Source: Candidatus Bathyarchaeota archaeon
GTDB lineage: Archaea > Thermoproteota > Bathyarchaeia > 40CM-2-53-6
DNA: 19,727 nucleotides
Assembly: GCA_963833125.1 (NCBI GenBank)
Contig: CAWHWX010000021.1
Location: 1 to 19,727, forward strand
Direction of reading: 5' to 3'
How positions within the stretch are numbered: position 1 is the stretch's first letter; the number at the start of each line of letters is the position of its first letter. Below, one piece after another: positions 1,470 through 16,970 of this stretch. A program made the translations under genes and the position numbers. Below the pieces are notes generated by a model, which worked only from the letters and a program-made list of their open reading frames with translations, did no database searches and was not told the origin of the DNA.

Positions 1470-1721
1470 TTACCATCGGGAGAAGTAGACGTCAACGTCC
1501 ATCTCGAACAATGAAAGGCAATGCCAGCAGCCTCTACAATCTGCAGTAATGTTCGAGAGAACCACCTGTGGGTCGGTGGGTGTATTTCCGATTAGAGAAA
1601 TCGCGCCGAGAGGGCCATCCCGAAGATTAGATCGGAAAGAGATTCGACATTGATCTTGATTCTCGGTGTCTCGTTGCTTTCCACATAAGGCAACTCGTTG
1701 TATTCTACGCTTTTCAGTCAA
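1470..1721 (-). CDS. Possible small Cys-containing hypothetical protein
   Basis: 83-aa ORF overlapping the stop of the upstream gene by 8 nt, with CxxCxxC near the C-terminus. No family recognised. Confidence 0.3.
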   Translation of the reverse strand: MTEKRRIQRVALCGKQRDTENQDQCRISFRSNLRDGPLGAISLIGNTPTDPQVVLSNITADCRGCWHCLSLFEMDVDVYFSRW

Positions 1722-2396
1722 GTATCCCGGCAGGTTTTCGATGTTGCGCTTTGTAAGAGATTAGCCTTGCCGAGGCGGAGAAAATTACTATCGTTATTGC
1801 TGTTATGACCAGGGGATTAGGGATCCATCTGCGAGTCCTTCGAATGATGCCCAGAATACCAATGCTCCTACTAGGAGCCCTAGCCCAGTACCTACCATGG
1901 CTGTGGAGACTTTCACGTCGAGTAAGTAGGCTATCACAATCGTCACCCACCAGCCAATGAGGAAAGTGGAGACAGCGATGACGCCGATTATTCCAAATGC
2001 ACCCGCGTGGGTGACTAGGTAGGTGGATATGGGACCGTACTGTTTCCTTATCCGCGCTAGATGCGGCGCGACACGCTCATATTGATCAATTGAATGTAAG
2101 ATTCTTAGGCCGGCGTAAGTCGTGAAGGCGAGAATCGGTACGACGAGCCCGATTGATACGTAGCTTGGAAGTCCTAATTTTGTTCCGAGGGCGATGGCGA
2201 AACCAAAACCGCCTAACAGTGCCAGGATAATGAATTGGGAAGGCCATGCGCTCAGGAGACCTCCGACGATGGCCCCGATTAAGAAGGTGAGTCCAATCGT
2301 GAGTAACGGATAGGCGTTCAGGAATCTGCGCAACGAACTGATCTCAGTAAAAAACGTCGAGTAAAACTGTTGTCCAGCGCTTCTAACTCTCTCCAC
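1714..2396 (-). CDS. COG2426 / small multi-drug export-like membrane protein (frameshift ~1835)
   Basis: The pattern GFGFAIALGTKLGLP...GAFGIIGVIAVSTFLIGWWVTIVIAYLLDV...GLGLLVGALV resembles COG2426. The C-terminus continues in the 1714..1950 frame (WIPNPLVITAITIVIF...). Confidence 0.6.
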
Positions 2397-2608
2397 GACA
2401 CAGAGGCCCCTTTCATCTCGCTTATGGCGATTCTTGATTTAAGTCCCTACTTACAATTCTTCTTCCAATTACAATTAACCACAAACGATACGGCGCTTTT
2501 TAATAGATGAAGGAAATGGCAGTACACTGATGATCTCATTTGTCCAAGAATATCAGGACTTCTGATTGGGTAAGGGCTCTACGCCTTGGATTTTAGGGAG
2601 CGAGATAT

Positions 2609-3031
2609 GTGAGCCACGTTCCTATGAGTGATTTGGAGCTTCGAGAGTTCCTCTCCCAACCCTTGATCGCTGATATCGTAACCTTGAAGAAAGATGGTTC
2701 CCCACAGATCACGCCTGTCGATTATTATTTTGATGGTACCTACCTCTACTTCTCAACCACTACTGAGCGGGCGAAGGGTAGGAATGTAAAACGTGACAAC
2801 AGAGTCGCGGTCTCCATCCGAAACGAGAACGCTCACAAAGTGGTTCTCTTTTCAGGCATCGCCGACATCTTGGATGACAAGGACCATGCTCTAGTTCGTA
2901 GGATCGTTGCTAGATACTGGCCGTCAGACAAGGTCGACGGAATTCTAAGCGGTCTGGAGGCCAACCGAATCATACTCCGAATGAAGCCAAGCAAGACGAT
3001 TAACTGGGACTACACCAAGTCAGGGAACTGA
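2609..3031 (+). CDS. PPOX-class (pyridoxamine 5'-phosphate oxidase-like) probable F420/FMN-dependent oxidoreductase
   Basis: Motifs TLKKDGSPQITPV, STTTERAKGRNVKRDNRVAVSI and C-terminal IILRMKP..INWD; 140 aa. Confidence 0.85.
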   Translation: MSHVPMSDLELREFLSQPLIADIVTLKKDGSPQITPVDYYFDGTYLYFSTTTERAKGRNVKRDNRVAVSIRNENAHKVVLFSGIADILDDKDHALVRRIVARYWPSDKVDGILSGLEANRIILRMKPSKTINWDYTKSGN

Positions 3032-3115
3032 CAGATCATGGTCTCTGACGGGTAGCTCGCGATCAAGCTTCTTCTTGAAAGGGACGGATTAACAGTAATC
3101 TTCCTGATTCACAAT

Positions 3116-3556
3116 TTGTTATTGGGTGAATTTGGTTTGCCAAAGAAATTTGGTCTCAAGCGTGACATTCCGGATGAGCATTCTTGGGTGCTGCAGCAGC
3201 TCTCAAGCAACGCGCTGACGCTTGCGGGGTTTTCATTCGCCTCTTTAGTATTCATGATTGGTCTCCTGGGAAACTCCTTTCCGGTGTCGGCGGAGGTCGG
3301 TCTCCTGCTTTGCACAATCACTTTCGCTATTGCAGGAGAAATGGCGAGAACCTCCTACAGTTCAGAGGAGTATATCGTCTCGGAAAGCGTATATTTCATC
3401 TCACTGATTTTGCTCTTTTACAACTTCATAACGCTAACCTACGAGTCGCTCCACGGCTGGGGAGTCATTCCCATCGTCGCCGCAATTGTCGGTCTTGTCT
3501 ATGTTATCTGGCGAACGTTCGCTAACTTCAGGCTACTGAGAAGAACTGGACATTGA
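3116..3556 (+). CDS. Hypothetical 4-TM membrane protein
   Basis: 146-aa ORF with four hydrophobic segments and a basic C-terminal tail. Confidence 0.6.
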   Translation: MLLGEFGLPKKFGLKRDIPDEHSWVLQQLSSNALTLAGFSFASLVFMIGLLGNSFPVSAEVGLLLCTITFAIAGEMARTSYSSEEYIVSESVYFISLILLFYNFITLTYESLHGWGVIPIVAAIVGLVYVIWRTFANFRLLRRTGH

Positions 3557-3686
3557 TAAGAATTGCAAACGCTAATGTGATAGATGGCAAAAGTTCAACA
3601 GTTCATATAATGCTGCCATCGCGCAGCACCAGCCATACACAACACTTTCTTGACTGCGACCGACGACGAGGCGCCACGAACCGAAA

Positions 3687-4109
3687 TTAAGGGGAAGACG
3701 GTTGCTTGGATGGGAGTTGTGTGAATTGCCAGAGCCCGACTAAGTTGCCTTCTGTATCCTGGAAGTAGGCGGCGAAGCCGAAGTTTCCAACGGGCGTTCT
3801 TGGTTGGATGATTTTGCCTCCGTTCTGCTCGATAGTTGCCGCTGCTTCGTCAATGTTCTTCACGCTGATGTAAATGACGGGGGACTTGACTGAGTCATGT
3901 CGCTCCACCATGCCACCGTTTATGGCACCTGGTTCCTTTGGGGTTCCTAGTACTCCGAGCTTATCAGCCTCAACGGTTCCGATTTGTGTGTAATGCATCG
4001 ATGGAATCTCGTTCATCTTCCAATCAAAAACTGTACCGTAGAATTTCCTTGCTCGCGCGAGGTTGTCGGCGGGTATTTCGAAGAATATTACCTTGTCCAA
4101 ATCCCTCAC
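3687..4109 (-). CDS. VOC (glyoxalase/bleomycin resistance) family protein
   Basis: FEIPADNLARARKFYGTVFDW, AINGG and FQDTEGNLVGLWQ are typical VOC motifs. GGAGGTGA SD-like sequence at the start. Confidence 0.9.
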   Translation of the reverse strand: MRDLDKVIFFEIPADNLARARKFYGTVFDWKMNEIPSMHYTQIGTVEADKLGVLGTPKEPGAINGGMVERHDSVKSPVIYISVKNIDEAAATIEQNGGKIIQPRTPVGNFGFAAYFQDTEGNLVGLWQFTQLPSKQPSSP

Positions 4110-4352
4110 CTCCGACCGCTCAGATTAGTAAACAAGTGTTAGTCTCTCCGAAACCGGGGGGAAGAGGATAAGGCCTCCGATAGGCTCTCGGCAAAAGAAC
4201 GTAAGGTAGAACCATCGATTTCCCCATGGTCAGGGTTCAACTCTGCAATCGTTAGGGTCACCCAATTTCGCGCCTGCATGAACACTCGAAGACTTGTCAT
4301 AAGTTGATCGAATCGAAGGCCCCTGTTGCGGCGGTTGGGGGCTGGACGGGGT

Positions 4353-4664
4353 TTAGTGTTGTTTGGTTTCCTCCAGTCTGAAGTTGCGTATTGCGAGGCG
4401 AATTAGGTCGCTTCTCTTTACAGAGTAGGTTTTTGCCATTTCATTCAACTTGATGATGAGGGGTTCGTTGATGGCAAGTTTGAGCTTATGTTTCTTGCAT
4501 TTCGCGAAGACTGATGGGTTGGGAGAACCGAACAGGTGCTCCAATGCTATGTTGACGATGCTGCTTAAGGGGAAGCCGCCGTAAGACCGGGTCAGCTCCC
4601 GCAATTCACCGAGCTCATATTCGCAGAACCGCAAGGCAACTCTCGGTTTAGGCGGATTAGTCAT
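4353..4664 (-). CDS. Tandem ribbon-helix-helix (CopG/Arc-like) DNA-binding protein
   Basis: From ATG 4664 there are two RHH-like units: RVALRFCEYELGELRELTRSYGGFPLSSIVNIALEHLF and KLKLAINEPLIIKLNEMAKTYSVKRSDLIRLAIRNF. The longer 4769 start adds low-information sequence. Confidence 0.65.
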   Translation of the reverse strand: MTNPPKPRVALRFCEYELGELRELTRSYGGFPLSSIVNIALEHLFGSPNPSVFAKCKKHKLKLAINEPLIIKLNEMAKTYSVKRSDLIRLAIRNFRLEETKQH

Positions 4665-4680
4665 CCCGAACCAAACACCC

Positions 4681-4727
4681 ACGGTGCACCGTCCTGAAAC
4701 GTTCTGACAATACCCTGACGTGTTCAG
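4681..4727. promoter_or_regulatory. Putative operator: 12-bp palindrome plus phased CTGA repeats upstream of the RHH gene
   Basis: ACGGTGCACCGT (4681-4692) is a perfect palindrome. CTGA occurs at 4694, 4704 and 4715, with inverted TCAG at 4724. Function is inferred. Confidence 0.3.
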
Positions 4728-4857
4728 CCAGGATGAGGGAGTCCGAAGTGAATTCAATCCCCCCAGCAACGACCCCTATCAAGCGTCATCCGCCTCGAAC
4801 GCCAGTGGGCATGAAAGTACCCACCCCCGGGGGGTATCCGCATCAAGCGGTGCGGGG

Positions 4858-5090
4858 TGGTGGGGCCGAAGGGACTCTCATGGTTCGGCCGTGAACCATT
4901 TTGAACCCTCGACTTCCGCCATACCGTCATGTCTACGGGTTTCTTCGCTCCTGAAGTTCGTCATTCCGTTCAGGTCCGCAAACCCGTTAAGGTTTGGTCT
5001 TCTGGAGCCCTTGGCGGGTACGTATCCCTGTCGTCATCCCTGGCTAGACACCGCCACTCCTTCCGACGTCATCGGAGTGACTACGGCCCC
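4858..5090 (-). tRNA. trnW: tRNA-Trp(CCA) with five introns (10/11, 28/29, 37/38, 45/46, 59/60), CCA end encoded
   Basis: Exons 5090-5081, 5048-5030, 5010-5002, 4940-4933, 4913-4900 and 4874-4858 join to GGGGCCG TA GTCT AGCCAGGGA TGAC G ACGGG CTCCAGA CCCGT AGGTC GAGGG TTCAAAT CCCTT CGGCCCC A CCA (77 nt, full cloverleaf, anticodon 5005-5003). Every junction sits in a BHB or relaxed BHB motif. Confidence 0.85.
4941..5001 (-). ncRNA. Putative intron-encoded C/D-box guide RNA in the tRNA-Trp 37/38 intron (Cm39, Cm34)
   Basis: Guide ACGGGTTT (4987-4980) then D' CGGA (4978-4975); C' ATGACGA (4964-4958); guide CTTCAGGAGC (4956-4947) then degenerate D AAGA (4945-4942). The N+5 rule lands on C39 and C34. 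Terminal boxes C and D are degenerate. Confidence 0.6.
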
Positions 5091-5210
5091 ACATGGGTTG
5101 AACAGGGTCGGCCCCAGCACCCCACCCTCAGAGAGTTGCTATAACGATTATGGCTGGCTCCAGGTCAACGCGTATAATACTGCGAACAGACGGAATCCTA
5201 TCGAAGGTTC

Positions 5211-6440
5211 TTGCTCAAGATAGGCTTAATCGGTAAGACAAACGCTGGCAAAACCACATTCTTCAACGCCGCAACCCTCCTAACCGCCGAAGTCTCCAAC
5301 TACCCCTTCACCACCAAGAAACCAAACGTAGGCCAAGCCAACGCCAAAACAATTTGCGTATGCAAGGAACTAGGCGTCAAGGATAATCCGCGCAACTCAA
5401 CCTGCATCGACGGAGCCCGTTTCATACCAGTACAACTAATCGACCTCCCAGGCCTAATCAAAGGATCATGGGAGGGTAAAGGCTTGGGAGCGCAGTTCCT
5501 AAGTGTCGCCTCTCAAGCAGATGCTCTCATACACATCGCAGATGCCTCAGGAAGCGTAGATGCTGAGGGAAAACTCACGAAACCCGGCATGGGAAACCCA
5601 GTTGCAGACGTCTACGATATCGAGGAAGAGATTGTGCGATGGTTCTCGAAATCAATCGAGAAAACACTCCAAAAAGTGAAAAAACATTCGAAGAAAGGCT
5701 CGTCAGTATACCACCTATTCGCACAGGATCTAGCGGGCATGAAAATCACCGCAACCCACATCGCACAGGCCCTCAACGCGGCTGACCTCACGGACAAGGA
5801 CTTAGGTAAATGGACGCGGCAGGACATTTGGAATTTCTCAAAGAGGCTGCGTGAAATTTCGAAGCCCACATTGATCGTGGCAAATAAGATGGATATCGCA
5901 CTCGGAGAGAAGAACTATGAGAAGCTGGTCAAAGAGTTTGGGCAAGCGTTCGTAATCGCCGCCTCAAGCGATGCTGAGCTCGCTCTGCGGAGGGCTGAAC
6001 AGACTGGATACGTTGAGTACGTTCCCGGCGAGGAAATTTTCAAGGTCAAGGATAGGAGCAAGCTTACTCCCGAGCAGCGAGACGCACTAACGTACGTTGA
6101 ACAACGTGTTTTCTCAAAATGGATACGGACGGGTGTGCAGTTCGCTCTGAACACCTGCATCTTCAAACTGCTCGGCATGAATGTTGTCTATCCGGTTGAG
6201 GATGCTGACAAGTTCTCGGACAGGAAGGGCAGCGTGCTTCCGGACGTGTTCCTAATTCCATACAACGCCTCTGTCTCGGACCTGGCCGGTCAGATTCATA
6301 GCGAACTAGCTAGGACCATGATCTACGCGGTTGACGCACGAACAAAGATTCGCCTACCAACCGATTACAAACTGAAAGACAGAGACGTCGTCAATATCGT
6401 CTCGGCCGCAAAAGGAAAATCACGAGCTAAGACCCAATAA
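5211..6440 (+). CDS. ychF: YchF/Obg-family translation-associated ATPase/GTPase with C-terminal TGS domain
   Basis: G1 GKTNAGKT, G2 NYPFTT, G3 DLPG, G4 NKMD, and a TGS region with IHSEL...YAVDART. Archaeal-type CxC...NS.C insert. Confidence 0.92.
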   Translation: MLKIGLIGKTNAGKTTFFNAATLLTAEVSNYPFTTKKPNVGQANAKTICVCKELGVKDNPRNSTCIDGARFIPVQLIDLPGLIKGSWEGKGLGAQFLSVASQADALIHIADASGSVDAEGKLTKPGMGNPVADVYDIEEEIVRWFSKSIEKTLQKVKKHSKKGSSVYHLFAQDLAGMKITATHIAQALNAADLTDKDLGKWTRQDIWNFSKRLREISKPTLIVANKMDIALGEKNYEKLVKEFGQAFVIAASSDAELALRRAEQTGYVEYVPGEEIFKVKDRSKLTPEQRDALTYVEQRVFSKWIRTGVQFALNTCIFKLLGMNVVYPVEDADKFSDRKGSVLPDVFLIPYNASVSDLAGQIHSELARTMIYAVDARTKIRLPTDYKLKDRDVVNIVSAAKGKSRAKTQ

Positions 6441-6996
6441 CCTTCAGCAAATCCGCCTTGGTTATGATTCCCAGCACGTGCCCACGCCGGACCACGAGCA
6501 CCGCAGGCTCATACTGAAGCAGCGCAGAAACCATCGACACCGGCGCAACCTCATTCACCAGTGGGAACGCCTCATCCATTATCGTCTCTATCTCTCCCTT
6601 CGACACAAGGTCGGGTTTGGGAGATGACACGAGCTTCTGAAGAATCGTCTTCTCCGTTAAGCTCCCTACAACCTGATTGCCGTTGAAAACAGGCAGCTGG
6701 GAGAAGCCTGTTTCCCGCATCAAATGCACTCCCCTCGAGATCGGTTCATGAGCCTGTACACTGACGACTTTGCCGTGGCAAATCTCCTTCGCCTTCATCT
6801 CGTTCCTTCGTTCCAAAGTCTCGAGGGTATCGAAGATGGCTTTGGTTTTCAGGTATGATGGGCTAATGTTCTTACTCTCAATCTTCGCGATCATTGATTG
6901 GCTTATGCCGGCGAGGTTAGCCAGCTTTTTCTGGCTCATCGCTAGGAGCCGGCGCCGCCGTCCAATCTCCTCTAATCCTGGTAGCATGGGATCCAA
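6427..6996 (-). CDS. XRE-HTH plus CBS-pair transcriptional regulator (COG3620-like)
   Basis: N-terminal RRRRLLAMSQKKLANLAGISQSMIAKIE (Cro/C1 HTH). CBS pair with FSQLPV and GIITKADLL. Confidence 0.9.
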   Translation of the reverse strand: MDPMLPGLEEIGRRRRLLAMSQKKLANLAGISQSMIAKIESKNISPSYLKTKAIFDTLETLERRNEMKAKEICHGKVVSVQAHEPISRGVHLMRETGFSQLPVFNGNQVVGSLTEKTILQKLVSSPKPDLVSKGEIETIMDEAFPLVNEVAPVSMVSALLQYEPAVLVVRRGHVLGIITKADLLKVIGS

Positions 6997-7094
6997 ACCC
7001 GTCTCCGAAGGGTATTCTTAGGGGAATTTTTTCTTATCGCAAGGTTATATTATAGGAATATCGGAATTTCGCCAATAAGTTTCAGTGAAATCAC

Positions 7095-8291
7095 TTGAGC
7101 AAACTTTCCACCGGATCAGCCAGCGTTGCCGTGGCTTTGAGCCAAAAGCCTCGGTCTTACATGTTCACGTCCGAAAGCGTCACCGAAGGTCACCCCGACA
7201 AGGTGGCGGATCAAATCTCAGACGCGATCCTCGACGCCATCATGCAGAAGGATCCGAAATCACGCCGTAGACATCGAGACTCTCATAATGAAAGGAACCA
7301 TAATTGTTACGGGTCAAATCTCAACAGCAAGCTACGTCCCGATTAGCCAAATCGTCCGCAACGTACTCCCGATATCGGCTTTAACAACGCGAAGGTAGGC
7401 TTGGATTGGGAAGCCTGCGGAGTCCTCGTCTCAGTAGAAGAGCAGTCTCCAGATATCGCCATGGGGGTCGATAAGGAAGACATTGGCGCGGGCGATCAGG
7501 GAATGGTGTTCGGGCACGCGACGAATGAAACTCCTGAACTAATGCCCCTACCGATCATCCTAGCCCACAAACTTGTCAGACGCCTCGCAGAGGTAAGAAA
7601 ACAGGAAATTCTACCCTACCTGCGGCCTGACGGAAAGTCGCAAGTGACCGTTGAATATTCGAACGGCAAACCGAAACGTGTAGACGCAGTAGTAATCGCG
7701 GCCCAACACAACGAAGACGTGCCAAGGGAGCAAATGAGAAAGGATATCATCGAGAAGGTAATCGAAAACGTCATCCCCAAGAACATGCTCGACAAGAACA
7801 CTAAATTCTTCATAAATGAAACCGGCCGCTTCACAGTAGGCGGCACACTCGCAGATTCCGGCCTGACTGGAAGGAAGATAATCGTTGACACGTACGGCGG
7901 GATTGGCAGCCACGGTGGCGGTTGTTTTTCCGGGAAGGATCCTACCAAAGTCGATCGATCCGGGAGCTACATGGCGCGGTACATTGCGAAGAACATAGTC
8001 GCGGCAGGTCTCGCCGACAAGTGCGACGTGCAGATCGCCTACGCCATAGGCGTTTCAAAGCCGGTTTCGGTCATGGTCTACACCTACGGCACTGGTAAGG
8101 CGTCCGATGAGAGAATTACGGATGCAGTGAAAGCAGTTTTCGACATGACCCCCAAGGGAATAATTGAGCGCCTAAATCTCCGAAGGCCCATTTACAGAAA
8201 GACGGCAACCTACGGACATTTCGGGCGGGACGATCCCGACTTTACATGGGAACGCACTGACAAAGTAGACGAACTCAAGAATTACGCATAG
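7095..8291 (+). CDS. metK: S-adenosylmethionine synthetase, bacterial/eukaryotic type (two compensating indels ~7266 and ~7369)
   Basis: [58 protein letters not shown] and YGHFGR. The missing middle ([19 protein letters not shown]...) reads in a shifted frame between the indels. Exact start uncertain. Confidence 0.93.
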
Positions 8292-8376
8292 ACAGTGTTG
8301 AAATGGGAACACGGCATCAATCGTAGATCCTTGAACATCATCCAATCAGGTCCACCGCAAGATTAGCACCAGTATA

Positions 8377-9517
8377 TTGATTAGGCCCGTTCGTGCGGTT
8401 TCGTGGCTTAACGCTGAGCGGTTGTCAATGGATGTAGGAAAGTCACTACAGCGCGTAGTTACAATGGGTAGAATGCTTGCCCTAATCCTCGCAATCTTCT
8501 CAGCCTTCACTTACGTAATTACCCTCATCTTAGGCCCAGTACTTTACTTCACTACACCCGATGGCCTGAAGGACGCTGGGCACGTAATCCACCAGCTCCC
8601 CCTGGACATCTTTATGCTTTACACAGTGTACCTCCCTGGCGGAATGAGCCACGGAACCCTATTCGCGATAATTTGGATTATTTTCGTTGTTTGCCTGGTG
8701 GCAGCATTTCTTAGCGCTGGAGGTTTTGTAAAAACGGTTAAGGATGCCCTCTCTAAGCCAATTTCAGTCGCGAAAACAAACTTCCTCTATATCATGCCCC
8801 TAGTAGCCACGGCCCTTCTTTACACGACAATTCTCATTTCAGAATTCCAAACAACGCAGGGCATTCAAACAGGCAGCTTAAATTTTCCCGCTCAGACAAG
8901 TCCGTACCTGATCCTCCTCAATCTTGCTTATGCTGCCGATAAGCGAGGAATTCGCCTTCCGGATAACAACGATCGGAATCCCGTTTGCCGCATTCCTTCT
9001 CATCATTTACCGATCAGATGCGCGGACGAAGGGGCTGAAGAAACGCGTGGGTTTATTCCTCCTCACCCTATTCAGTCCCGAACTCGCCAAATCTAAGCTG
9101 GGTTACAAGACCGTGGCTGCAAACGGTTTCATCCGCGGCATTAGTCCCATGGAGTGGGCGCTTATTGTGGTAAGCTCGGCGGTGTTCGGGATAGCTCACT
9201 ACATTGGCGGAGGAGGCTGGGAGATCGGGAAAGTTTCTACTGCGGCACTAGCAGGTTTCGTTTTTGCTATCATGTATGTGAGCTACGGCGCCTACGCAGA
9301 CATTCTCATGCACTGGTTCTTCAACTACTACTTCACAGTCCTCGATATGGCGAGCACCGCGTATGGCGGCGTGTTTACTGGTTTCGCGAACTTCGTCGAG
9401 ATCAGTAACCTGTTAGCAGGCCCAGTCGTACTTATCGTCTTTCTGCTAATCTCTGCCCTAAAGCTGTCCGACTACCTCACAGCACGGGCCGCGGGAATTT
9501 CCACAAAGACCACCTAA
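8377..9517 (+). CDS. CPBP (Abi/CAAX type II) intramembrane glutamic protease (frameshift ~8935)
   Basis: Motifs EEFAFR, FGIAH and HWFFN. The N-terminal TM part (8377 frame) joins the 8924 frame at ...NLAYA/PISEE. Confidence 0.85.
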
Positions 9518-9652
9518 ACCCATTCGACAATCTTATACGGCAAAACAACCCAACTCAGTCTGGTGCAGGGGCCTGTATCACCGCCAAGTCCACTAAGGCT
9601 AGAAACAAGCTCTCTCTTAGGCCTCAATGCATTTTCTAGCAAGTGACAACAC

Positions 9653-12016
9653 ATGGCAACTCCGGAGAAAACTGAAACCGCGAAGAAATTCCTGCCACAA
9701 ATCACCGAAAAGAGATGGGACCATAATGTTGAGAGGACAATTTTCGATCAATGGCAGCAGGAAGGGATGTTTAGGTTCAAGGCCGGTAAGGGAGGAAAAA
9801 CCTTCCTCATCGACACTCCGCCGCCAACCACCTCAGGAACTTGGCACATAGGCGCAGTGGCAGCCTACTCACAAATCGATATGATTGCCCGATCCCAACG
9901 GATGCAGGGAAAATCCGTTCTATTCCCAATCGGCTTTGACCGAAACGGAATCAATGTCGAGATCTACGTAGAGAAGCAATCAAAGGTGCGGATGCGGGAC
10001 ACACCCAGGCAACAATTCATCGACCTATGCTCACACGCGCTCGACGAGCTCGAGGCTCAGATGTTGAACATGATGAAGCGGGTCGGGTTGAGTGGGGATT
10101 ACGAGGGCAGATATCACACCGATCACGAAGACTACCGGAAGCGGACGCAGGCCACATTTATCGAACTCTGGAAAAGAGGGCTCATCTACGAAACAACACG
10201 CCCCAACAACTACTGCCACGTGTGCGGAACAACAATCGCCGACGCAGAAGTAGAATACGAAGATCTTCCCTCGAACCTGACGTATCTCAACTTCAAAATT
10301 GAAGAAACAGGCGAAACGCTAGTGATCGCGACAACCCGGCCTGAACTTGTTTGCGCATGTCAGTTGGTAATCGTGAACCCCACGGACGAGAGATACACGA
10401 AGTTTCATGGAATGCACGCGATTCTACCCATCTACGGCCGTAAAGTCGAAGTTAAACCCCATCCGAGCGCAAAAGCCGAGTTCGGTACGGGGGCCGTAAT
10501 GATATGCAGCTACGGAGACTACACGGACGTACTACTCTTCAGGGAGTTGAGTCTCAAAGAGGTCTTAGCCGTAGGGCCGGATGGCAGACTTACCGCTGCC
10601 GCGGGAGCATACCAAGGTTCTACGATGTTAGAGGGACGCTCGCGAATCCTAGAAGACTTGCGCTCTCAGGGCCTACTCGTCAAAACTGAAAAGATTAGGC
10701 ACCGCACACCAGTATGCTCACGCAGCAACACCCCAATTGAAATCATACCGATGAAGGAATACTACCTAAAGCAAATAGACTTCATCCCGAAGCTCAAACA
10801 ACTCGCTAAGCAAATCACCTTTCACCCCGAGGCGGGTAGGCAGATATTGCTCGACTGGATAAACTCGATAACGATTGACTGGCCGATTTCCAGACGACGC
10901 GTATACGCCACTGAGATTCCGGTTTGGTACTGCAAGAGCTGCGGCACAACATTCCTCCCTCCCCCGGGCGAATATTACAGGCCATGGAGAGATCAACCAC
11001 CATCTGCAATATGTTCCAAATGCGGTAACGCTGAATTTGACGGGGAGACTCGCACATTCGACACCTGGATGGACTCAAGCATTTCCGCGCTTTACATTTC
11101 CAAATACCAACTAGACCCCAAGTTCTTCAAGCGAGCATACCCTGCAAGCATACGGCCTCAGGGGAAGGACATAGTGAGAACTTGGCTCCACTACTCCGTC
11201 CTGAGGTGCTACCAATTAACAGGCCGAGCGCCATTTACAGATGCGTGGATAAACGGGCTTGGGATGGATGAACAAGGTCAAGCGATGCACAAGAGCAAAG
11301 GGAATGTTGTAGAGCCTGAACCGGTTCTTGAAAAGTTCGGAGCAGACTCATTCAGGTTCTGGAACGCTTCCGAAGCAACCCTTGGTTCCGATTTCCGTTG
11401 CTCCGAAATGAGAATCGCCGCAGCCCACAAATTCATGACGAAACTCTGGAATCTCTCCCGTTTCATCTCATCCTTCCCACAAGTCAAGACAGCCAGACTC
11501 CAGCCCAGCGACAAATGGATTCTCTCCGAACTCACCCTACTGATACAAAAATCCATCAAGGGCTATCGCGATTACAATTTCTTTGTCCCCTCAACAGCAA
11601 TCAGAGACTTCGTCTGGGAGACATTTGCCTCACATTACCTAGAGATGGTGAAGCCTCGCGCCTACGGCGAGGGCTTCACAAAGAGTCAGCAGAAAGCTGC
11701 ATGGTACACGCTCCACACAGTCTTGAAGAGTGTACTCCTTCTAATTGCCCCTATAGCCCCGTTCATGCCAGAGCACGTCTGGAAGCAATTGTACTCGAAG
11801 AGAAGCATCCACGCCCAGGAATTCCCAAAGCCGGAGTGGTCGAAGGCATCGAAGCGTTATACCCAGAAGATGTTCGATTTCAACCGAGAAGTCTGGAAGA
11901 TTAAGAAGGAAAAGAGCCTGGCTCTACGTGACCCAGTCGATGTAAAGATCCCGAAGGCTCTAGCGCCGTTCACAGACGATTTGGTTAGGATGCATTCGTT
12001 GATCACGAAGCCATAG
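9653..12016 (+). CDS. valS: Valine--tRNA ligase, archaeal type
   Basis: DTPPP, HIGH-like WHIGA, editing-domain ATTRPE and GTGAV, DWPISR, DTWMDSS, RPQGKDIV, KMSKS-like AMHKSKGN. No bacterial C-terminal coiled coil. Confidence 0.95.
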   Translation: MATPEKTETAKKFLPQITEKRWDHNVERTIFDQWQQEGMFRFKAGKGGKTFLIDTPPPTTSGTWHIGAVAAYSQIDMIARSQRMQGKSVLFPIGFDRNGINVEIYVEKQSKVRMRDTPRQQFIDLCSHALDELEAQMLNMMKRVGLSGDYEGRYHTDHEDYRKRTQATFIELWKRGLIYETTRPNNYCHVCGTTIADAEVEYEDLPSNLTYLNFKIEETGETLVIATTRPELVCACQLVIVNPTDERYTKFHGMHAILPIYGRKVEVKPHPSAKAEFGTGAVMICSYGDYTDVLLFRELSLKEVLAVGPDGRLTAAAGAYQGSTMLEGRSRILEDLRSQGLLVKTEKIRHRTPVCSRSNTPIEIIPMKEYYLKQIDFIPKLKQLAKQITFHPEAGRQILLDWINSITIDWPISRRRVYATEIPVWYCKSCGTTFLPPPGEYYRPWRDQPPSAICSKCGNAEFDGETRTFDTWMDSSISALYISKYQLDPKFFKRAYPASIRPQGKDIVRTWLHYSVLRCYQLTGRAPFTDAWINGLGMDEQGQAMHKSKGNVVEPEPVLEKFGADSFRFWNASEATLGSDFRCSEMRIAAAHKFMTKLWNLSRFISSFPQVKTARLQPSDKWILSELTLLIQKSIKGYRDYNFFVPSTAIRDFVWETFASHYLEMVKPRAYGEGFTKSQQKAAWYTLHTVLKSVLLLIAPIAPFMPEHVWKQLYSKRSIHAQEFPKPEWSKASKRYTQKMFDFNREVWKIKKEKSLALRDPVDVKIPKALAPFTDDLVRMHSLITKP

Positions 12017-12059
12017 TCGAAGTGCAATAGTTTAATATCGCAAGACTCGCTCTAACGCC

Positions 12060-12362
12060 TTGATTTCGATGAAGATATCCGAACTCAAGCCTGGAATGCG
12101 GCGTGTGGACACGATAACCGCCAAGATTCAAGAAATCTCCCCAGCAAGGGAAGTAACGACAAGAAGGGGCGAACAATCCAGGGTTGCTACAGCAGTTGTC
12201 GCCGATGATTCTGGCACTGTCAAACTTAACCTATGGAATGAACAAATCGACCAGGTAAAGGCCAACGATACTGTAACGATTGAGAATGGGTATGTGGATA
12301 GTTTCCGCGGCGAGACCCAGCTGAACGTAGGCCGATACGGTAAGCTCACAGTGCAGCCATAA
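12060..12362 (+). CDS. Single OB-fold single-stranded DNA-binding protein (crenarchaeal SSB/RPA-like)
   Basis: KISELKPG, VADDSGTVKLNLW and IENGYVDSFRGETQLNVGRYG. TTTAATAT at 12031-12038 is a TATA candidate. Alternative ATG start at 12069. Confidence 0.88.
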   Translation: MISMKISELKPGMRRVDTITAKIQEISPAREVTTRRGEQSRVATAVVADDSGTVKLNLWNEQIDQVKANDTVTIENGYVDSFRGETQLNVGRYGKLTVQP

Positions 12363-12401
12363 CCGAATTCTTCACCTCCTACGCCGGTTAAGGCCCAAAA
12401 T

Positions 12402-13286
12402 TTGAGCACAGACGATCGCTTCGAAGAAATAAAACATCTACTTGACTCAACGATAAACGAATTTCAAACACTCTTCGAATCGGCGGGTGGGTTCGAAGAC
12501 TCAAGAGTCGGAAATGGTTGGGCTCCGGATAAGTTAACGCCTGAGGTCTATTGCCTCGAGCCAAAACCCCTACCAGAACTGCTCAAGACGGCTGAGGACC
12601 GTAAGGCAGCCTTGTTCAAAAACCGAGTCCTGTCTCTGCTCAAACCGAAGGACCAAGACGTTCACGCCGCGGAACCACCTAAACTAAAACTGATTCCGTT
12701 CTGGAGAATTCATGGATACCATGAATGTTTCTACTTTAGGGGAAACACGTACAAAATCGATCTTCCCCAGGATGTCGTCGCTGTGGAAGTTGAAGGAAAG
12801 ATCAGGGATCTCGTTGAACTGGGTTCTGCTGAAGGACAGGGAATATCGAATTTAGCAAAACGGTTACTGGGGAGAAGGGAGGGGTCAGAATCAAAATCGT
12901 TTCGACTAAACGAAATCACGGAGCTAGCGCATATGTACGACGAGAATTCCCTCTTTCTCAATGCGCATGGAAAGGAAGACCTCGAGGCCGAGGCGTTCTT
13001 CGACCGTCCCCTACCTCTCAAGAAGACAACCTACGAAGAACTACTCCTACAATACCCCGCCGTAGAATTCGAGACAAATTCGATGACCAAAGAGGAATTG
13101 GTCGCGAAGCTCCATGCTATGGTTGTTAAGCCACCCGCGGCATTCTCAAAGATACTTAGTAACCGATTCCAAGTGACTCAGTTAGCCCAATACCTAATGC
13201 CGGTCTACTCTTTCATCTTTGAATGGCACGGACAAAAAAGAGCGCTATCCGTGCATGGATACACCGGCGGAATTTTTCAACCCTGA
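12402..13286 (+). CDS. Hypothetical soluble protein
   Basis: 294-aa uninterrupted ORF co-oriented with SSB. Aromatic motifs LIPFW and YLMPVYSF...VHGYTG. Family not recognised with confidence. Confidence 0.7.
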   Translation: MSTDDRFEEIKHLLDSTINEFQTLFESAGGFEDSRVGNGWAPDKLTPEVYCLEPKPLPELLKTAEDRKAALFKNRVLSLLKPKDQDVHAAEPPKLKLIPFWRIHGYHECFYFRGNTYKIDLPQDVVAVEVEGKIRDLVELGSAEGQGISNLAKRLLGRREGSESKSFRLNEITELAHMYDENSLFLNAHGKEDLEAEAFFDRPLPLKKTTYEELLLQYPAVEFETNSMTKEELVAKLHAMVVKPPAAFSKILSNRFQVTQLAQYLMPVYSFIFEWHGQKRALSVHGYTGGIFQP

Positions 13287-14723
13287 GAGAACTTGCGGTA
13301 CCTCGGCCGCTTGAGAAGTCTCCTTAACCGGAAGTAGACCTTCCTTCCATAACGGGACACCGACCAACGAACAACAAACGCGACCGCAACGACACCTACA
13401 ATAACACTGATGAACAAATACGGCTGAGCTACCACCTCGTAAGTGGCCTTGCCCGAGTTCCCTAACGTGTCTCCTGCGCTAACCTTCAACGTCCACGTCC
13501 CGCCACGAATCAAATCAAAGAGTGTGCTTGAGTACGAAGCCCGCCATTCGCCAATGGAGGGGTCGTAGGTTGCCATCAACGGTGTGATCGATGATCCGGT
13601 AGAGACGACAAGGTTCACCGACCCAACGGTCAAAGGTGTTCCGTCCGGATATGTCACCTTTGATATTATGCTGACTTGGCCGAACGGAATTTGGATTCGT
13701 GTTCCGTTCAATTGACTGCTGATGATCAGGCTGGCATTCGTAACTGTGAAGTAATTAGAGGCCGTGTCAACTGCCGCACCCTTGTTCCCGAATCCATCGT
13801 CAAAGGCCATTGCGGGCATGTCGAAGCGATATTTCCCGCTGGGCGTCGCGTTGGCGAAGAGTTTGACCCCAGCCGCCCAGATGCCGTTTGCGGGATCAAC
13901 AAGGGTAAGATTGGCGGGGCCAAGTGTGGTCTGGTCTCGCATCAGGATGACGGGTTGTGAGGTAGGGTTTGAATTGACTACGGGGCTGCCGTCTGGGTAT
14001 TGAATTGCCATCGTTACATTGGCAACTTGTGTCCTCTGGTAGGTTGAGTTTGGTTGGTTTACGATTCTGGTCGATAGTACTGCCTGCGTCACAGTAAATT
14101 TCGCCGTAGAGGAAAAGTCCTGTTGCGGATTATCGAATGTCCCCGTGCCATAGATCACGGCTGTAAATACGTCTGTAATCGCGTCTGGCGGAATTCTCCA
14201 GGTATGATTGAAATCTCCCTCGGTCGTCGAAGCGAGTGTGGAGTGTACGATGTTGCCCGCCGGATCTTGAATAGTCAAACTGATGCTTGTGCCCGGAAAA
14301 ATGCCCCCGCCTATGATGTTCACAGACTGTGTTCTTTGATATACGGGCGTCGCTGAACCCCAGACACCGAAATGTGCGATCGCCTGCGCAGTTATCGGTG
14401 GTTGATGACGTAGATAGGCTGATGAGGTACGTACCCAATTCTGCATTGGCTGATAGAGGATAGGTTGTATCAGGAGGGATGAGTCCTCCAGAAACGGGCG
14501 TGAAGCTGACTCCGGTGTATCGTGTCTTGTTGGTGGCAGGTCCCCTTACCCAGAGGTAGTATTGTTGACTGGGCGTTAGCCCGGATCCGGCTAGGGTTAC
14601 TTGCTTGTCTCTGATGGTGTACAAGTAATTGTCTGTGCTTAGCGAAGGTGATGCTTTGGCTGGAAGCGGGAGGGCTAGCAGGATGATTGCCAGGGCAAGA
14701 AGTATGATTTTGGTTTGCTTCAT
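13277..14723 (-). CDS. Secreted, C-terminally membrane-anchored beta-rich (Ig-like) surface protein (frameshift ~14388)
   Basis: Signal peptide MKQTKIILLALAIILLALPLPAKA. Thr/Ser-rich beta segments with repeated YPDG.P motifs. C-terminal TM helix plus basic tail. ORFs 14130..14723 and 13277..14446 join near TTDNC/AQAIAHF. Confidence 0.75.
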
Positions 14724-14773
14724 TCGGTTTTTCCCTCCGCTTTCGCACTTCTTACGGCCAGTATGGTGTCATT

Positions 14774-14899
14774 TGGCGCCGGGAGAGGGATTCGAACCCC
14801 CGAGGCCCATAAGGGCCACGGGCTTGCATTGAAGTTGACACTCAAGGCCCGCGCCTTTGGACCATTTTCCATGATGTTAATCCACTCGGCCATCCCGGC
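14774..14899 (-). tRNA. trnS: tRNA-Ser(TGA) with two introns (21/22 and 37/38), CCA end encoded
   Basis: Removing 14877-14857 (21 nt; BHB GGAT/GTCC, bulges TA|A and AA|A) and 14840-14825 (16 nt) gives GCCGGGA TG GCC GAGTGGATTAA GGC G CGGGC CTTGAGA GCCCG TGGCCCTTATGGGCCTC GGGGG TTCGAAT CCCTC TCCCGGC G CCA (89 nt). Long variable arm and G73 fit Ser. Confidence 0.9.
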
Positions 14900-14923
14900 T
14901 AAAGTATCCCTGAAGCCGATTCC

Positions 14924-14930
14924 TATTTAA
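14924..14930 (-). promoter_or_regulatory. TATA box candidate for tRNA-Ser
   Basis: TTAAATA on the minus strand, 25-31 nt upstream of the mature 5' end, inside the 76-nt divergent gap shared with archease. Confidence 0.55.
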
Positions 14931-14975
14931 GTTCCCGTTGGCTTGCGAGCGCGAAAATTCAGATAGGTCTTCGCT

Positions 14976-15410
14976 TTGGCAGCCCCGCGTTATGAGTTTC
15001 TTCCACATACAACAGACGCATACATTCAATCTGTTGGTCCCACTTTTGAGGAGGCGCTTGAAAATGCGGGGCTAGCGCTGTTCGATACGATGTGTAACTT
15101 AGATTCAATTTCGATTAAAGAGGTCGACGATGTTGAGGCTGACGGTGGTGACGAAGTAGAGCTTCTCTATGATTGGCTCGAAACGCTGCTGCTGAAATTC
15201 GAGCTCGACAGTAAGGTCTACTCGAAATTTCATGTCACCCTCCTGAAGACCGCTCCCAACATCCTACAACTCAGAGCCAAGGCCTACGGCGAGACCTACA
15301 ATCGCCAGCTTCATGACTCTAAGGTTGAGGTAAAGGCTGTGACCCTTCACAGAATGGAAGTCGTGAGAGAAGGAAATTTAGTCATTCTTAGGTTCATACT
15401 TGACCTCTAG
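14976..15410 (+). CDS. Archease (cofactor of the RtcB tRNA-splicing ligase)
   Basis: YEFLPHTTD, LLYDWLETLL, C-terminal EVKAVTLH and terminal ILDL; 144 aa. Confidence 0.93.
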   Translation: MAAPRYEFLPHTTDAYIQSVGPTFEEALENAGLALFDTMCNLDSISIKEVDDVEADGGDEVELLYDWLETLLLKFELDSKVYSKFHVTLLKTAPNILQLRAKAYGETYNRQLHDSKVEVKAVTLHRMEVVREGNLVILRFILDL

Positions 15411-16437
15411 CCGCCTTGAAGCTTGGTATTAGGAAAAGTTTCGCAGGGTCGACATCCCTCAGCACTGATAGATAAGTCGAAACATAATCACCGAAAGTTA
15501 TAGCGCTAAGTAACCACCCCAATCTATCTTCGCCTACCACTTCGAAACTAATGGCCCGCGCAAATCCGAGCTGCGAAAGCAACTCAACCAACCTTTTCTC
15601 CGTCCTTTCATCCCCTCCCATTTGGTTTTGGTTACGAAGAAGGATCGGTTGAGTTCGAGACAGCTCCGTGAGCATCCTCAGCCCTTCGATGTCATTGTGG
15701 TATGCTTCTGGGAGGGCGAGGTAGAATGCTGGAACTTTGCTGTTCTCATTAAGCTCATTTTTGAATCGGCGAAGCACGCTAATGTTGTCCTCGCTCCCTA
15801 ACAGGAGGGGGAGATGATCCTTGAGTGCGACGGCCATCTGCTTCGCCTGATTCTTGGTCAGCGGGACTGATGGCTTCACCGAACTAATTATTTGCCGGAC
15901 AGACCGTGAAGCCGTTTCAAGCAGTTTCTGAGTATCCTTGAGAACGCCTCCTTGACCTAAGACATAGGCCAGTGCAGCTACGAGTTCAGGTAACGCCAAT
16001 CTTGGAGGCATGCCTCCATCGACCTTCACGTAAGGGATTCCTTGGGATTGCGCAGTCGCGAGAAGTTTCCCACCGGAGCAAACTACAGCAACGTTTGCTC
16101 CGTTACGCTTTGCTTGCTCGAACAATCCAAGTGTTTCGGCGGTATCTCCGGAGTAACTAATCGCAATGAATAGAGTATTCTTTCCCACATAACGCGGCAT
16201 TCCAACAGATCTGCAAACCGCCACAGGAATACCGACTTCACTCCGCAAGTAGTCTGTGAGGATATCCCCAACGATTCCGGAACCTCCCACGCCCCCAAAG
16301 ACGATGTTCATAGGGGTTTGAAAGCGAATTCGGCAGGTGGAATCGGCATTTGACGATGGAACCAGACGATCTGGAGTCCTCTCAATCGCCGCCAGCATAT
16401 CCGATTGGTCCACCCCTTCGAATTTCAGTCGGCTCAT
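15394..16437 (-). CDS. Bifunctional phosphoglucose/phosphomannose isomerase (SIS family)
   Basis: GVGGSG, ISYSGDTAET, SGGKL, PPRLA, RFKNELNENSK and PEAYHNDIEG. Confidence 0.92.
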   Translation of the reverse strand: MSRLKFEGVDQSDMLAAIERTPDRLVPSSNADSTCRIRFQTPMNIVFGGVGGSGIVGDILTDYLRSEVGIPVAVCRSVGMPRYVGKNTLFIAISYSGDTAETLGLFEQAKRNGANVAVVCSGGKLLATAQSQGIPYVKVDGGMPPRLALPELVAALAYVLGQGGVLKDTQKLLETASRSVRQIISSVKPSVPLTKNQAKQMAVALKDHLPLLLGSEDNISVLRRFKNELNENSKVPAFYLALPEAYHNDIEGLRMLTELSRTQPILLRNQNQMGGDERTEKRLVELLSQLGFARAISFEVVGEDRLGWLLSAITFGDYVSTYLSVLRDVDPAKLFLIPSFKAARGQV

Positions 16438-16485
16438 CTAGGCTCATTTTCACTCCCCTTGAGACGTATCCTTCTCCTAATAGAT

Positions 16486-16970
16486 TCATTCTTTCTTTGT
16501 AGTCTTTGGGGTGTCTCGTTCCTCGGCGTCCAATTCCTTGAATCGTGTTTCCACGAATTCAGCCACTCGCTCCTGACCATATTTCTTCAATTCGCTTTGT
16601 TTCTTCAATTGTTGTTCGATTGTGCGAAGCAGCTCAGTCATGTTGATTGGCTTGACCAAATAGCCATTGGCGCCCTTGTTTACCCGTCGATTGCATTCTG
16701 TAGTGCGGGGTATCCTGTGAGGATGATCTTGACCATCTCTGGGGTTGTTTGTTTCATGGAGGTTAGGACTTTCGTGCCGTCCATGTCTGGGAGGCGAATG
16801 TCTACGAGCGCAAGGTTATAGAAGTTGGTTTGAGATTTCGCGACGGCATCCTTGCCGTTGCTCGCGGTATCGACCAAGTATCCTTCAGTCTTCAGAGCTT
16901 CAGCGACAACTTTGCGAATTCCTTCATCGTCGTCTACGACGAGTATTCTGCCTTTCATGCCTTCACTCAT
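16486..16970 (-). CDS. Response regulator, receiver domain with short helical tail (frameshift ~16684)
   Basis: ILVVDDD, phosphoacceptor LVDIRLPDMDG and ILTGY. After a 1-nt deletion it continues VNKGANGYLVKP...QERVAEFVETRFKEL...KKE to TGA at 16488-16486. Confidence 0.88.

Follow-up and report, generated by a model that had tools for sequence, protein, structure and literature searches.

Can a single archaeal tRNA gene be divided into as many as six exons and still be functional? The question is raised by a stretch of 233 nucleotides (nt) on the minus strand, from position 5090 to 4858, of contig CAWHWX010000021.1 of assembly GCA_963833125.1, which was obtained from Candidatus Bathyarchaeota archaeon, a member of the class Bathyarchaeia. 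The window referred to here is the whole stretch of DNA that was analysed, with a length of 19,727 nt. We conclude, with a probability of about 0.93, that the region is a functional tRNA-Trp(CCA) gene composed of six exons separated by five protein-spliced bulge-helix-bulge (BHB) introns. Exons of 10, 19, 9, 8, 14, and 17 nt alternate in this gene with introns of 32, 19, 61, 19, and 25 nt in the 5'-to-3' direction.

Concatenation of the exons by script gave a 77-mer that ARAGORN identified as tRNA-Trp(CCA). This molecule possesses a perfect 7-bp acceptor stem, U8, A14, G18G19, U33, G37, and a TTCAAAT T-loop, and its 3' end consists of discriminator A73 and a CCA encoded in the DNA, as is found for 17 of the 18 tRNA genes detected in the genome. 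A first-pass annotation made from the sequence alone had proposed a tRNA-Trp gene with these exon and intron coordinates, with introns at 10/11, 28/29, 37/38, 45/46, and 59/60, with exons of 8 to 19 nt, and with U8, A14, G18G19, U33, a purine at position 37, and TTCAAAT restored by splicing. All of these elements and the associated motifs are indeed present, and the five intron positions held up in the comparison of orthologs described below, which confirmed four of the junctions.

Orthologous loci were found in 18 of 22 same-genus genomes at E <= 1e-54, with the four genomes that gave no match being 67–83% complete, and the locus was matched more weakly in most genomes searched across the order. 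Of 41 orthologous records retrieved by exon pattern, 36 are named as assemblies of Candidatus Bathyarchaeia or Bathyarchaeota. The 71 exon-pattern matches corresponded to 52 distinct sequences, and removal of five that were cut by contig ends left 47 full-length genes, in which introns were called by spliced alignment to the mature tRNA sequence of the window; for L030, L049, and L073 the aligner placed the T-loop intron 2 to 3 nt away, and it was assigned to 59/60 by eye. Five introns were present in 38 of these genes, four in eight, and three in one. Site 10/11 was occupied in 33 genes and an alternative D-loop site in six, sites 28/29, 45/46, and 59/60 were each occupied in 46, and site 37/38 was occupied in all 47. 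One locus, L033, contains an intron at 25/26 instead of 28/29.

Four of the five introns were cleanly absent from some of the 56 orthologs examined, a set that includes nine loci from other orders. Intron 1 is missing in 14 of the 47 genes of the order, with exons 1 and 2 contiguous exactly at the predicted junction, and the same contiguity was observed for intron 2 in L099, L102, and L103 as well as for intron 4 in L034 and L098. Intron 5 is missing in L033, in L090, and in all nine other-order loci, the T loop being contiguous. Intron 3 was retained throughout, in all 47 orthologs from the order and all nine from other orders, and no ortholog among the 56 was without it. Across all of these loci the exon blocks are conserved, and the introns vary in both length and sequence.

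At the class level, 27 of 121 sampled genomes gave a match at E <= 1e-8, and in other orders the match was limited to exon 3, intron 3, and exon 4. We picked 18 of these class-level loci and dropped three (one with no anchor, one on the wrong strand, and one truncated); the spliced products of the remaining 15 were all recognized as Trp(CCA) by ARAGORN. Given that the nine other-order loci carry only two to four introns each, the five-intron state belongs to the order of the window. Four loci (L043, L045, L069, and L071) lie in records with bacterial names (Methylomirabilota, Acidoferrum, and Acidiferrales), and the same contigs belong to genomes of the archaeal genus of the window (L010, L013, L032, and L009); the records look mislabelled, or the contigs mis-binned.

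To describe the BHB motifs, we scored the central helix with the cut placed after the second base of each 3-nt bulge, the rule that the first-pass annotation had applied to all ten cuts. This placement gave a 4-bp central helix at every intron, with four of four pairs formed for introns 1, 4, and 5 and three of four for introns 2 and 3. From the sequence, four equivalent cuts are available for intron 1 and two for intron 3, all of which yield the same product, and wherever an ortholog offers several equivalent cuts, the BHB rule points to one and the same site. The central helix is fully paired in 31 of 31 distinct rows for intron 1 and in 29 of 29 for intron 4. Because the exon strands are fixed by the tRNA, changes in the central helices are mostly one-sided and preserve pairing: the last pair of intron 1 is U.G in 22 of 31 distinct rows and U-A in nine, the A.C mismatch of intron 2 is an A-U pair in 11 of 32, and the C.A mismatch of intron 3 is C-G in the group of L040. 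The inner stems of the introns, on the other hand, change on both sides across orthologs. The BHB of intron 5, which has the full hBHBh' form, covaries. In an alignment of 38 sequences, 92.1% of its cells are paired, compared with 38–58% when the partners are slid by one to three columns; six pairs show double-sided change, compared with zero to three in the slid controls; and none of 500 shuffles reached the observed pairing. The minimum-energy fold of the 233-nt precursor (-88.2 kcal/mol, z = -2.2) contains the acceptor stem, the intron 5 motif, and a pairing between intron 3 and the tRNA that is described below. Residues C40-C41 take part in two helices, the outer one of intron 3 and the central one of intron 4, so that the two motifs would not be complete together, which suggests that these introns are removed in a set order.

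The first-pass annotation had also pointed to RNA reads as a place to look for the five exon junctions, and one joint, fitting intron 1, was found there. Peat and soil RNA libraries contain 23–41% of the sampled words of the locus. In run X5, an 83-nt contig with a depth of 802 matches 5107-5079 and 5046-4992 and skips the 32 nt between them (5047-5078); because the joint can be shifted by as much as 3 nt, removal of 5049-5080, or intron 1, fits. Still present in this contig are 17 nt of leader, intron 2, and the beginning of intron 3. Intron 1 can apparently be excised before the leader and introns 2 and 3 are lost. An unspliced contig over the same stretch was present in the same run at a depth of 161, and runs X1, X3, and X6 contained unspliced contigs only, although contigs cannot show an absence of splicing. 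Since intron 1 is found in the DNA of all same-genus genomes in which the 5' part of the gene is assembled, an intron-less allele in a strain with approximately 96% identity is unlikely, and splicing is the simpler reading. A separate X5 contig that covers intron 3 with a depth of 1106 ends at window position 4936, directly against the Illumina adapter; many library molecules end at this point inside exon 4, which could be a reverse transcription stop, a processing end, or a library artefact.

The unspliced locus was not called by ARAGORN, with or without intron mode, and was not found by Rfam either at the gathering score or at E <= 10, as had been anticipated in the first-pass annotation. 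No other tRNA-Trp gene was detected in the genome by ARAGORN with introns, by Rfam, or by the BHB census described below, except for an allelic copy on contig C19, and the region is thus the only detectable tRNA-Trp(CCA) gene of this Bathyarchaeia genome. The copy (C19:73649-73417) also has five introns and differs in the loops and stems of introns 1 and 5. Given that the window contig and contig C19 of the same assembly align over 16 kb with 94.7% identity, we regard this copy as a co-binned strain variant rather than a paralog. The whole window contig is in fact copied at approximately 92–95% identity (window 1611-19443 versus C19:70096-87612 of the same assembly, G000), and three near-identical tRNA-Val(CAC) genes on contigs C2, C3, and C16 point likewise to two strains. 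The bin seems to hold two related strains, consistent with its 7% contamination estimate.

Intron 3 contains an element that the first-pass annotation had overlooked. Alignment of 38 distinct copies of this intron revealed a conserved GGGUUU-N-CNGA-CC, followed by a short variable loop, GG-N-AUGANGA, and UUC(A/U)GGAGC. Read against the box C/D consensus and the N+5 methylation rule, these segments resemble a pair of internal D' and C' boxes with a guide on either side, the boxes closing a K-loop-like module through CC/GG. The fifth nucleotide upstream of box D' faces C39 of the joined tRNA. The D-side guide pairs over 10 positions with one A.A mismatch, and if AAGA is taken as box D, C34 lies opposite the fifth nucleotide from the 3' end of the guide; in other orders this guide is UUCUGGAGC and matches perfectly. 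The position of box D is occupied by CUGA in L015 and by UUGA or GUGA in other orders (L093 and L096), with a spacer of exactly 12 nt. The C' and D' boxes and the two guides are conserved across the class. On the basis of these sequence features, we think it slightly more likely than not that intron 3 acts as a methylation guide for C34 and C39 of its own tRNA, and such a role would probably explain why intron 3 is the one that is never lost.

A precedent exists in Haloferax and other Euryarchaeota, in which the tRNA-Trp intron is reported to guide methylation at positions 34 and 39 (PMC11408192, PMC7714728). The two guides of intron 3 would be aimed at C34 and C39 in the same manner. The intron of Haloferax and that described here share the same tRNA, the canonical 37/38 site, the targets 34 and 39, and an internal C'/D' pair, and fibrillarin is encoded in the present genome (E 1.4e-97). 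The Bathyarchaeia intron is shorter, however, at 57 to 68 nt compared with approximately 103 nt in Haloferax, it has no recognisable terminal box C, its box D is degenerate in the genus, and position 39 is C rather than U. Furthermore, the lineage is not euryarchaeal, and the guide is predicted from sequence. Coordinates of the module and of all other features of the gene are shown in Table 1.

Table 1. Coordinates in the window of the exons, introns, and associated elements of the tRNA-Trp(CCA) gene.
Feature	Position	Strand	Remarks
TATA-like element TTATAG	5139..5144	-	Approximately 50 nt upstream of the mature 5' end; from sequence
Precursor 5' leader	5091..5108	-	RNA-library contigs stop at 5100-5108; contig ends are not exact transcript ends
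Exon 1, tRNA positions 1-10	5081..5090	-	Adjoins exon 2 directly in 14/47 orthologs
Intron 1, 32 nt, site 10/11	5049..5080	-	Central helix CCGU/GCGG, 4/4; inner stem of 6 bp
Exon 2, positions 11-28, D arm	5030..5048	-	ARAGORN-accepted join and ortholog alignment
Intron 2, 19 nt, site 28/29	5011..5029	-	Central helix GACG/CGCC, one A.C mismatch
Exon 3, positions 29-37, anticodon CCA	5002..5010	-	ARAGORN-accepted join and ortholog alignment
Intron 3, 61 nt, canonical site 37/38	4941..5001	-	Central helix CUCC/GAAG, 3/4; anticodon stem serves as outer helix
D'-side guide ACGGGUUUG (predicted)	4979..4987	-	Forms 9 base pairs with the joined tRNA, positions 35-43
Box D'-like CGGA	4975..4978	-	CNGA in 38/38 distinct introns, CUGA in many
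Box C'-like AUGACGA	4958..4964	-	AUGANGA in 38/38 distinct introns
D-side guide, 12 nt (predicted)	4946..4957	-	Complementary to G31-G37 and the first 3 nt of intron 3
Degenerate box D-like AAGA	4942..4945	-	12-nt spacing; weak in this genus
Exon 4, 8 nt, positions 38-45	4933..4940	-	ARAGORN-accepted join and ortholog alignment
Intron 4, 19 nt, site 45/46	4914..4932	-	Central helix CCGU/GCGG, 4/4
Exon 5, positions 46-59	4900..4913	-	ARAGORN-accepted join and ortholog alignment
Intron 5, 25 nt, site 59/60	4875..4899	-	Full hBHBh': T stem, UUCA/UGAG, 6-bp inner stem
Exon 6, positions 60-73 and CCA (4860-4858)	4858..4874	-	ARAGORN-accepted join and ortholog alignment

Could a tRNA-like sequence have been carved out of unrelated DNA simply by allowing five free excisions? 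This explanation was confronted with a BHB-constrained census of the whole 3.07-Mb genome and of reversed and complement-only control copies. The search begins with an acceptor stem and CCA anchor, builds a cloverleaf subject to checks of stems and conserved bases, and jumps only across BHB-compatible intervals of 11 to 130 nt, with its output filtered by ARAGORN. The Trp gene was recovered with zero mismatches and with 148 to 156 nt excised. In all, the real genome gave 59 solutions and the controls 28. Those with four or fewer introns numbered 32 in the real genome and zero in the controls, and those with five or six introns numbered 27 and 28, respectively. BHB and cloverleaf logic by itself thus yields false genes with five or six introns, so that a search of this kind would not distinguish a five-intron reading based purely on motifs from noise. 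The census is trustworthy only up to four introns, we rejected its non-Trp calls with five or six introns as noise, and the case for the Trp gene rests on the orthologs and the RNA joint rather than on structure alone. The census also sometimes picks a wrong short intron or isotype, and for the Trp gene it ranked an 11-nt alternative to intron 4 first. The sole control solution with zero mismatches, however, needed 328 nt excised, so that no control solution combined zero mismatches with excision of fewer than 300 nt. The 47 orthologs of the order, the contiguous exons of the intron-less alleles, and the joint in RNA exclude chance, the probability of which we consider negligible, and the covariation of the helices argues in the same direction.

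In addition to the census result, several observations weigh against the existence of five functional introns or of the guide in intron 3. All four RNA runs were aligned as contigs, and the libraries may hold DNA. The shorter side of the X5 joint is 29 nt, just under the 30-nt caution of the alignment tool, and the joint covers intron 1 only; none was seen for introns 2 to 5 in the four runs, where exons of 8 to 19 nt are too short to align and such joints would escape the method. The central helices of introns 2 and 3 each contain one mismatch, that of intron 3 lacks an adjoining inner stem in this genome, and the minimum-energy fold of the whole precursor does not contain all five BHBs, a result that decides nothing. 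With regard to the guide, no terminal box C was found within intron 3, the D-side box is degenerate in this genome, the spacer is 13 nt in many order-level relatives, and L033 has no D' complementarity. Rfam detected no family, and no C/D family, at E <= 10 on the tRNA strand in 4800-5150, its sole match there being a chance 9-bit match on the other strand. If the gene were a decaying relic, a working tRNA-Trp might lie in the missing 12% of the genome or in split genes; the assembly is 87.8% complete, another Trp gene could be unassembled, and Rfam gave only 19 tRNA matches at E <= 0.001 in the genome, 18 of them over the family cut-off and most with insertions. The exons, however, are identical or nearly so in different families and orders of the class, also in genomes with a completeness rating of 98–100%; all 15 of the class-level loci yield clean Trp(CCA) products, the BHB helices are maintained by compensatory change, the locus is present at high depth in RNA libraries, and no second Trp gene was found. 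A relic is therefore very improbable in our estimation. The gene might also be real with details that differ, in that boundaries are shifted by 1 to 3 nt or that the module of intron 3 serves as complementarity for precursor folding rather than as a guide. The equivalent cuts for introns 1 and 3 leave room for such a shift, though with the same product, and the missing box C, the degenerate box D, the silence of Rfam, and L033 speak for the folding role. In contrast, the BHB rule picks one site in all orthologs, conservation across the class extends to the C'/D' boxes, the CC/GG that closes them, and the two guides, and other orders show the exact 12-nt spacer followed by UUGA or GUGA. A revision of this kind seems to us unlikely, albeit far less so than a relic, and a functional gene with five BHB introns remains the reading that we adopt.

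The genome also encodes candidate enzymes for processing of this five-intron gene. Two PF01974 genes specify products of 185 and 190 amino acids that share 19% identity. The 185-residue EndA gave matches with E 8e-40 to 4e-28 to chains designated tRNA-splicing endonuclease, and it contains a Tyr...His...Lys pattern; the entries that it matched, 3p1z, 3ajv, 2cv8, and 2zyz, are presumably crenarchaeal enzymes. The 190-residue paralog gave weak matches and is without the His. This pair of divergent paralogs has the pattern of a catalytic and a structural subunit, and it is for this reason that we infer an enzyme of the (alpha-beta)2 type. RtcB is likewise encoded (E 1.5e-172).

In the pathway that we propose, a precursor of approximately 250 nt would be transcribed with a leader of approximately 18 nt. 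An ATATAG/TTATAG-CAAC block lies at the same distance from the tRNA in same-genus orthologs, and the TTATAG block is a putative promoter. A copy of the 5' strand of the acceptor stem, GGGGCCG, was noted at window 5108-5120 on the minus strand, just upstream of the RNA contig ends, and GGGGCCG or GGGGUCGA recurs 20 to 30 nt upstream of tRNA-Trp in orthologs of several families. In the precursor, the last six exon bases before each intron would pair with the 3' end of that intron, forming a local helix-bulge unit with a 4-bp helix, two 3-nt bulges, and an inner stem, so that the five sites would be largely self-contained. The crenarchaeal-type EndA, made up of the catalytic and structural paralogs, would then cut in both bulges, and the exons would be joined by RtcB.

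The hexamer CCGUAG precedes both intron 1 and intron 4, and the same core helix, CCGU/GCGG, is formed at the two sites. In one ortholog, L024 (G031:C5), the two introns are identical at 16 of 17 nt, including a 9-nt unconstrained core. We rejected a general similarity of introns 1 and 4, given that L024 is the only one of 32 genes to exceed the background, for which the maximum score was 0.33; in the other 31 genes, the two introns share only the constrained 3' core. In L024, an intron may recently have been copied, in a single instance, from one site of the gene to the other, both of which follow CCGUAG, with reversal of the EndA/ligase reaction or gene conversion being examples of a route.

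With regard to other tRNA genes, the set of this genome is broadly intron-rich and under-detected, as judged from the census and Rfam, although isotype labels from the census are unreliable. The census found credible four-intron genes (with introns of 28, 24, 25, and 24 nt and of 31, 21, 21, and 21 nt) as well as three-intron genes; example loci are C9:6773-6961, C16:326836-327018, C1:155789-155930, C12:31530-31675, and C14:28869-29029. Just three tRNA genes in the assembly are both intron-free and high-scoring (64–70 bits), and all are located on contig C28 (57281-57357, 34937-35013, and 110482-110559), the G+C content of which, 0.521, is the second highest among the 39 contigs; this contig is possibly derived from a different organism. 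The window contains a second interrupted tRNA gene, at 14774-14899 on the minus strand. It is of class II, with a long variable arm, G73, and an encoded CCA, and its D loop is interrupted by a 21-nt intron with a well-formed BHB (14877-14857; central helix GGAU/GUCC, 4/4). Approximately 16 extra nt are present in its anticodon loop, and no convincing BHB was found there. This gene was missed by the default run of ARAGORN, which with introns allowed assigned Leu(CAA); a canonical 37/38 cut would give UGA (Ser).

How unusual is a tRNA gene with five introns? Archaeal tRNA genes are stated to contain up to three introns in the tRNAscan-SE 2.0 paper (PMC8450103), and three was also the maximum named in the first-pass annotation, which considered that five would be exceptional. 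The figure of three agrees with that paper and is overtaken by a bioRxiv preprint of October 2026, which describes up to five intervening sequences in a single Asgard gene (10.64898/2026.10.13.758758); five introns are thus rare but not unprecedented. Introns in 92–95% of tRNA genes were described for Asgard genomes in 2024 (PMC11291895). We found no literature on multi-intron tRNAs in Bathyarchaeia in a search that extended neither to supplements nor to most subscription journals.

Comparison with the multi-intron tRNAs of TACK archaea, as made in the first-pass annotation, is apt, with the qualification that the host belongs to Bathyarchaeia and not to Thermoproteales. The multi-intron tRNAs of Thermoproteales and other Crenarchaeota or Thaumarchaeota (PMC8450103) resemble the present gene in that protein-spliced introns of the BHB and relaxed HBh' kinds occupy canonical as well as non-canonical sites, in a crenarchaeal-type EndA with two paralogs, as predicted here, and in genes that are missed or under-called by finders. 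The present gene differs in that it has five introns, rather than three at most, and exons as short as 8 to 9 nt, and in that it belongs to Bathyarchaeia from mesophilic soil and peat assemblies, with an architecture conserved over a whole order. The Asgard genes of the preprint share with it the maximum number per gene, BHB sites, many D-arm introns missed by annotation, and positions gained repeatedly in a lineage-specific manner. They belong to a different phylum, and the string "Bathyarchae-" does not occur in the preprint, which also reports no general route of intron copying. The present case, in contrast, concerns one orthologous gene at 56 loci with site-by-site presence and absence, an RNA joint, and one near-identical intron pair. 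The mechanism is an ordinary one, and the novelty lies in degree, lineage, and documentation. A combined claim would go further: that the order has kept its single tRNA-Trp in six exons of 8 to 19 nt as the most fragmented cis-encoded tRNA gene with site-by-site comparative evidence and an RNA joint, that introns were copied between CCGUAG sites, and that intron 3 is a functional box C/D guide in tRNA-Trp, the first outside Euryarchaeota, and one that works without a terminal box C. Taken as a whole, this combination is tentative, and we would doubt that every part of it will stand.

These findings place Bathyarchaeia, which are abundant and widespread archaea of soil and sediment, among the lineages with extreme fragmentation of tRNA genes. 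The tRNA sets of Bathyarchaeia are badly under-annotated, which affects completeness scores and inferences about codon usage. With five sites in 233 nt and exons as short as 8 nt, the gene is a compact natural substrate for the action of EndA and for the order of its cuts, and the pattern of presence and absence over 56 orthologs, together with the near-identical intron pair, constitutes a test case for the gain of BHB introns.

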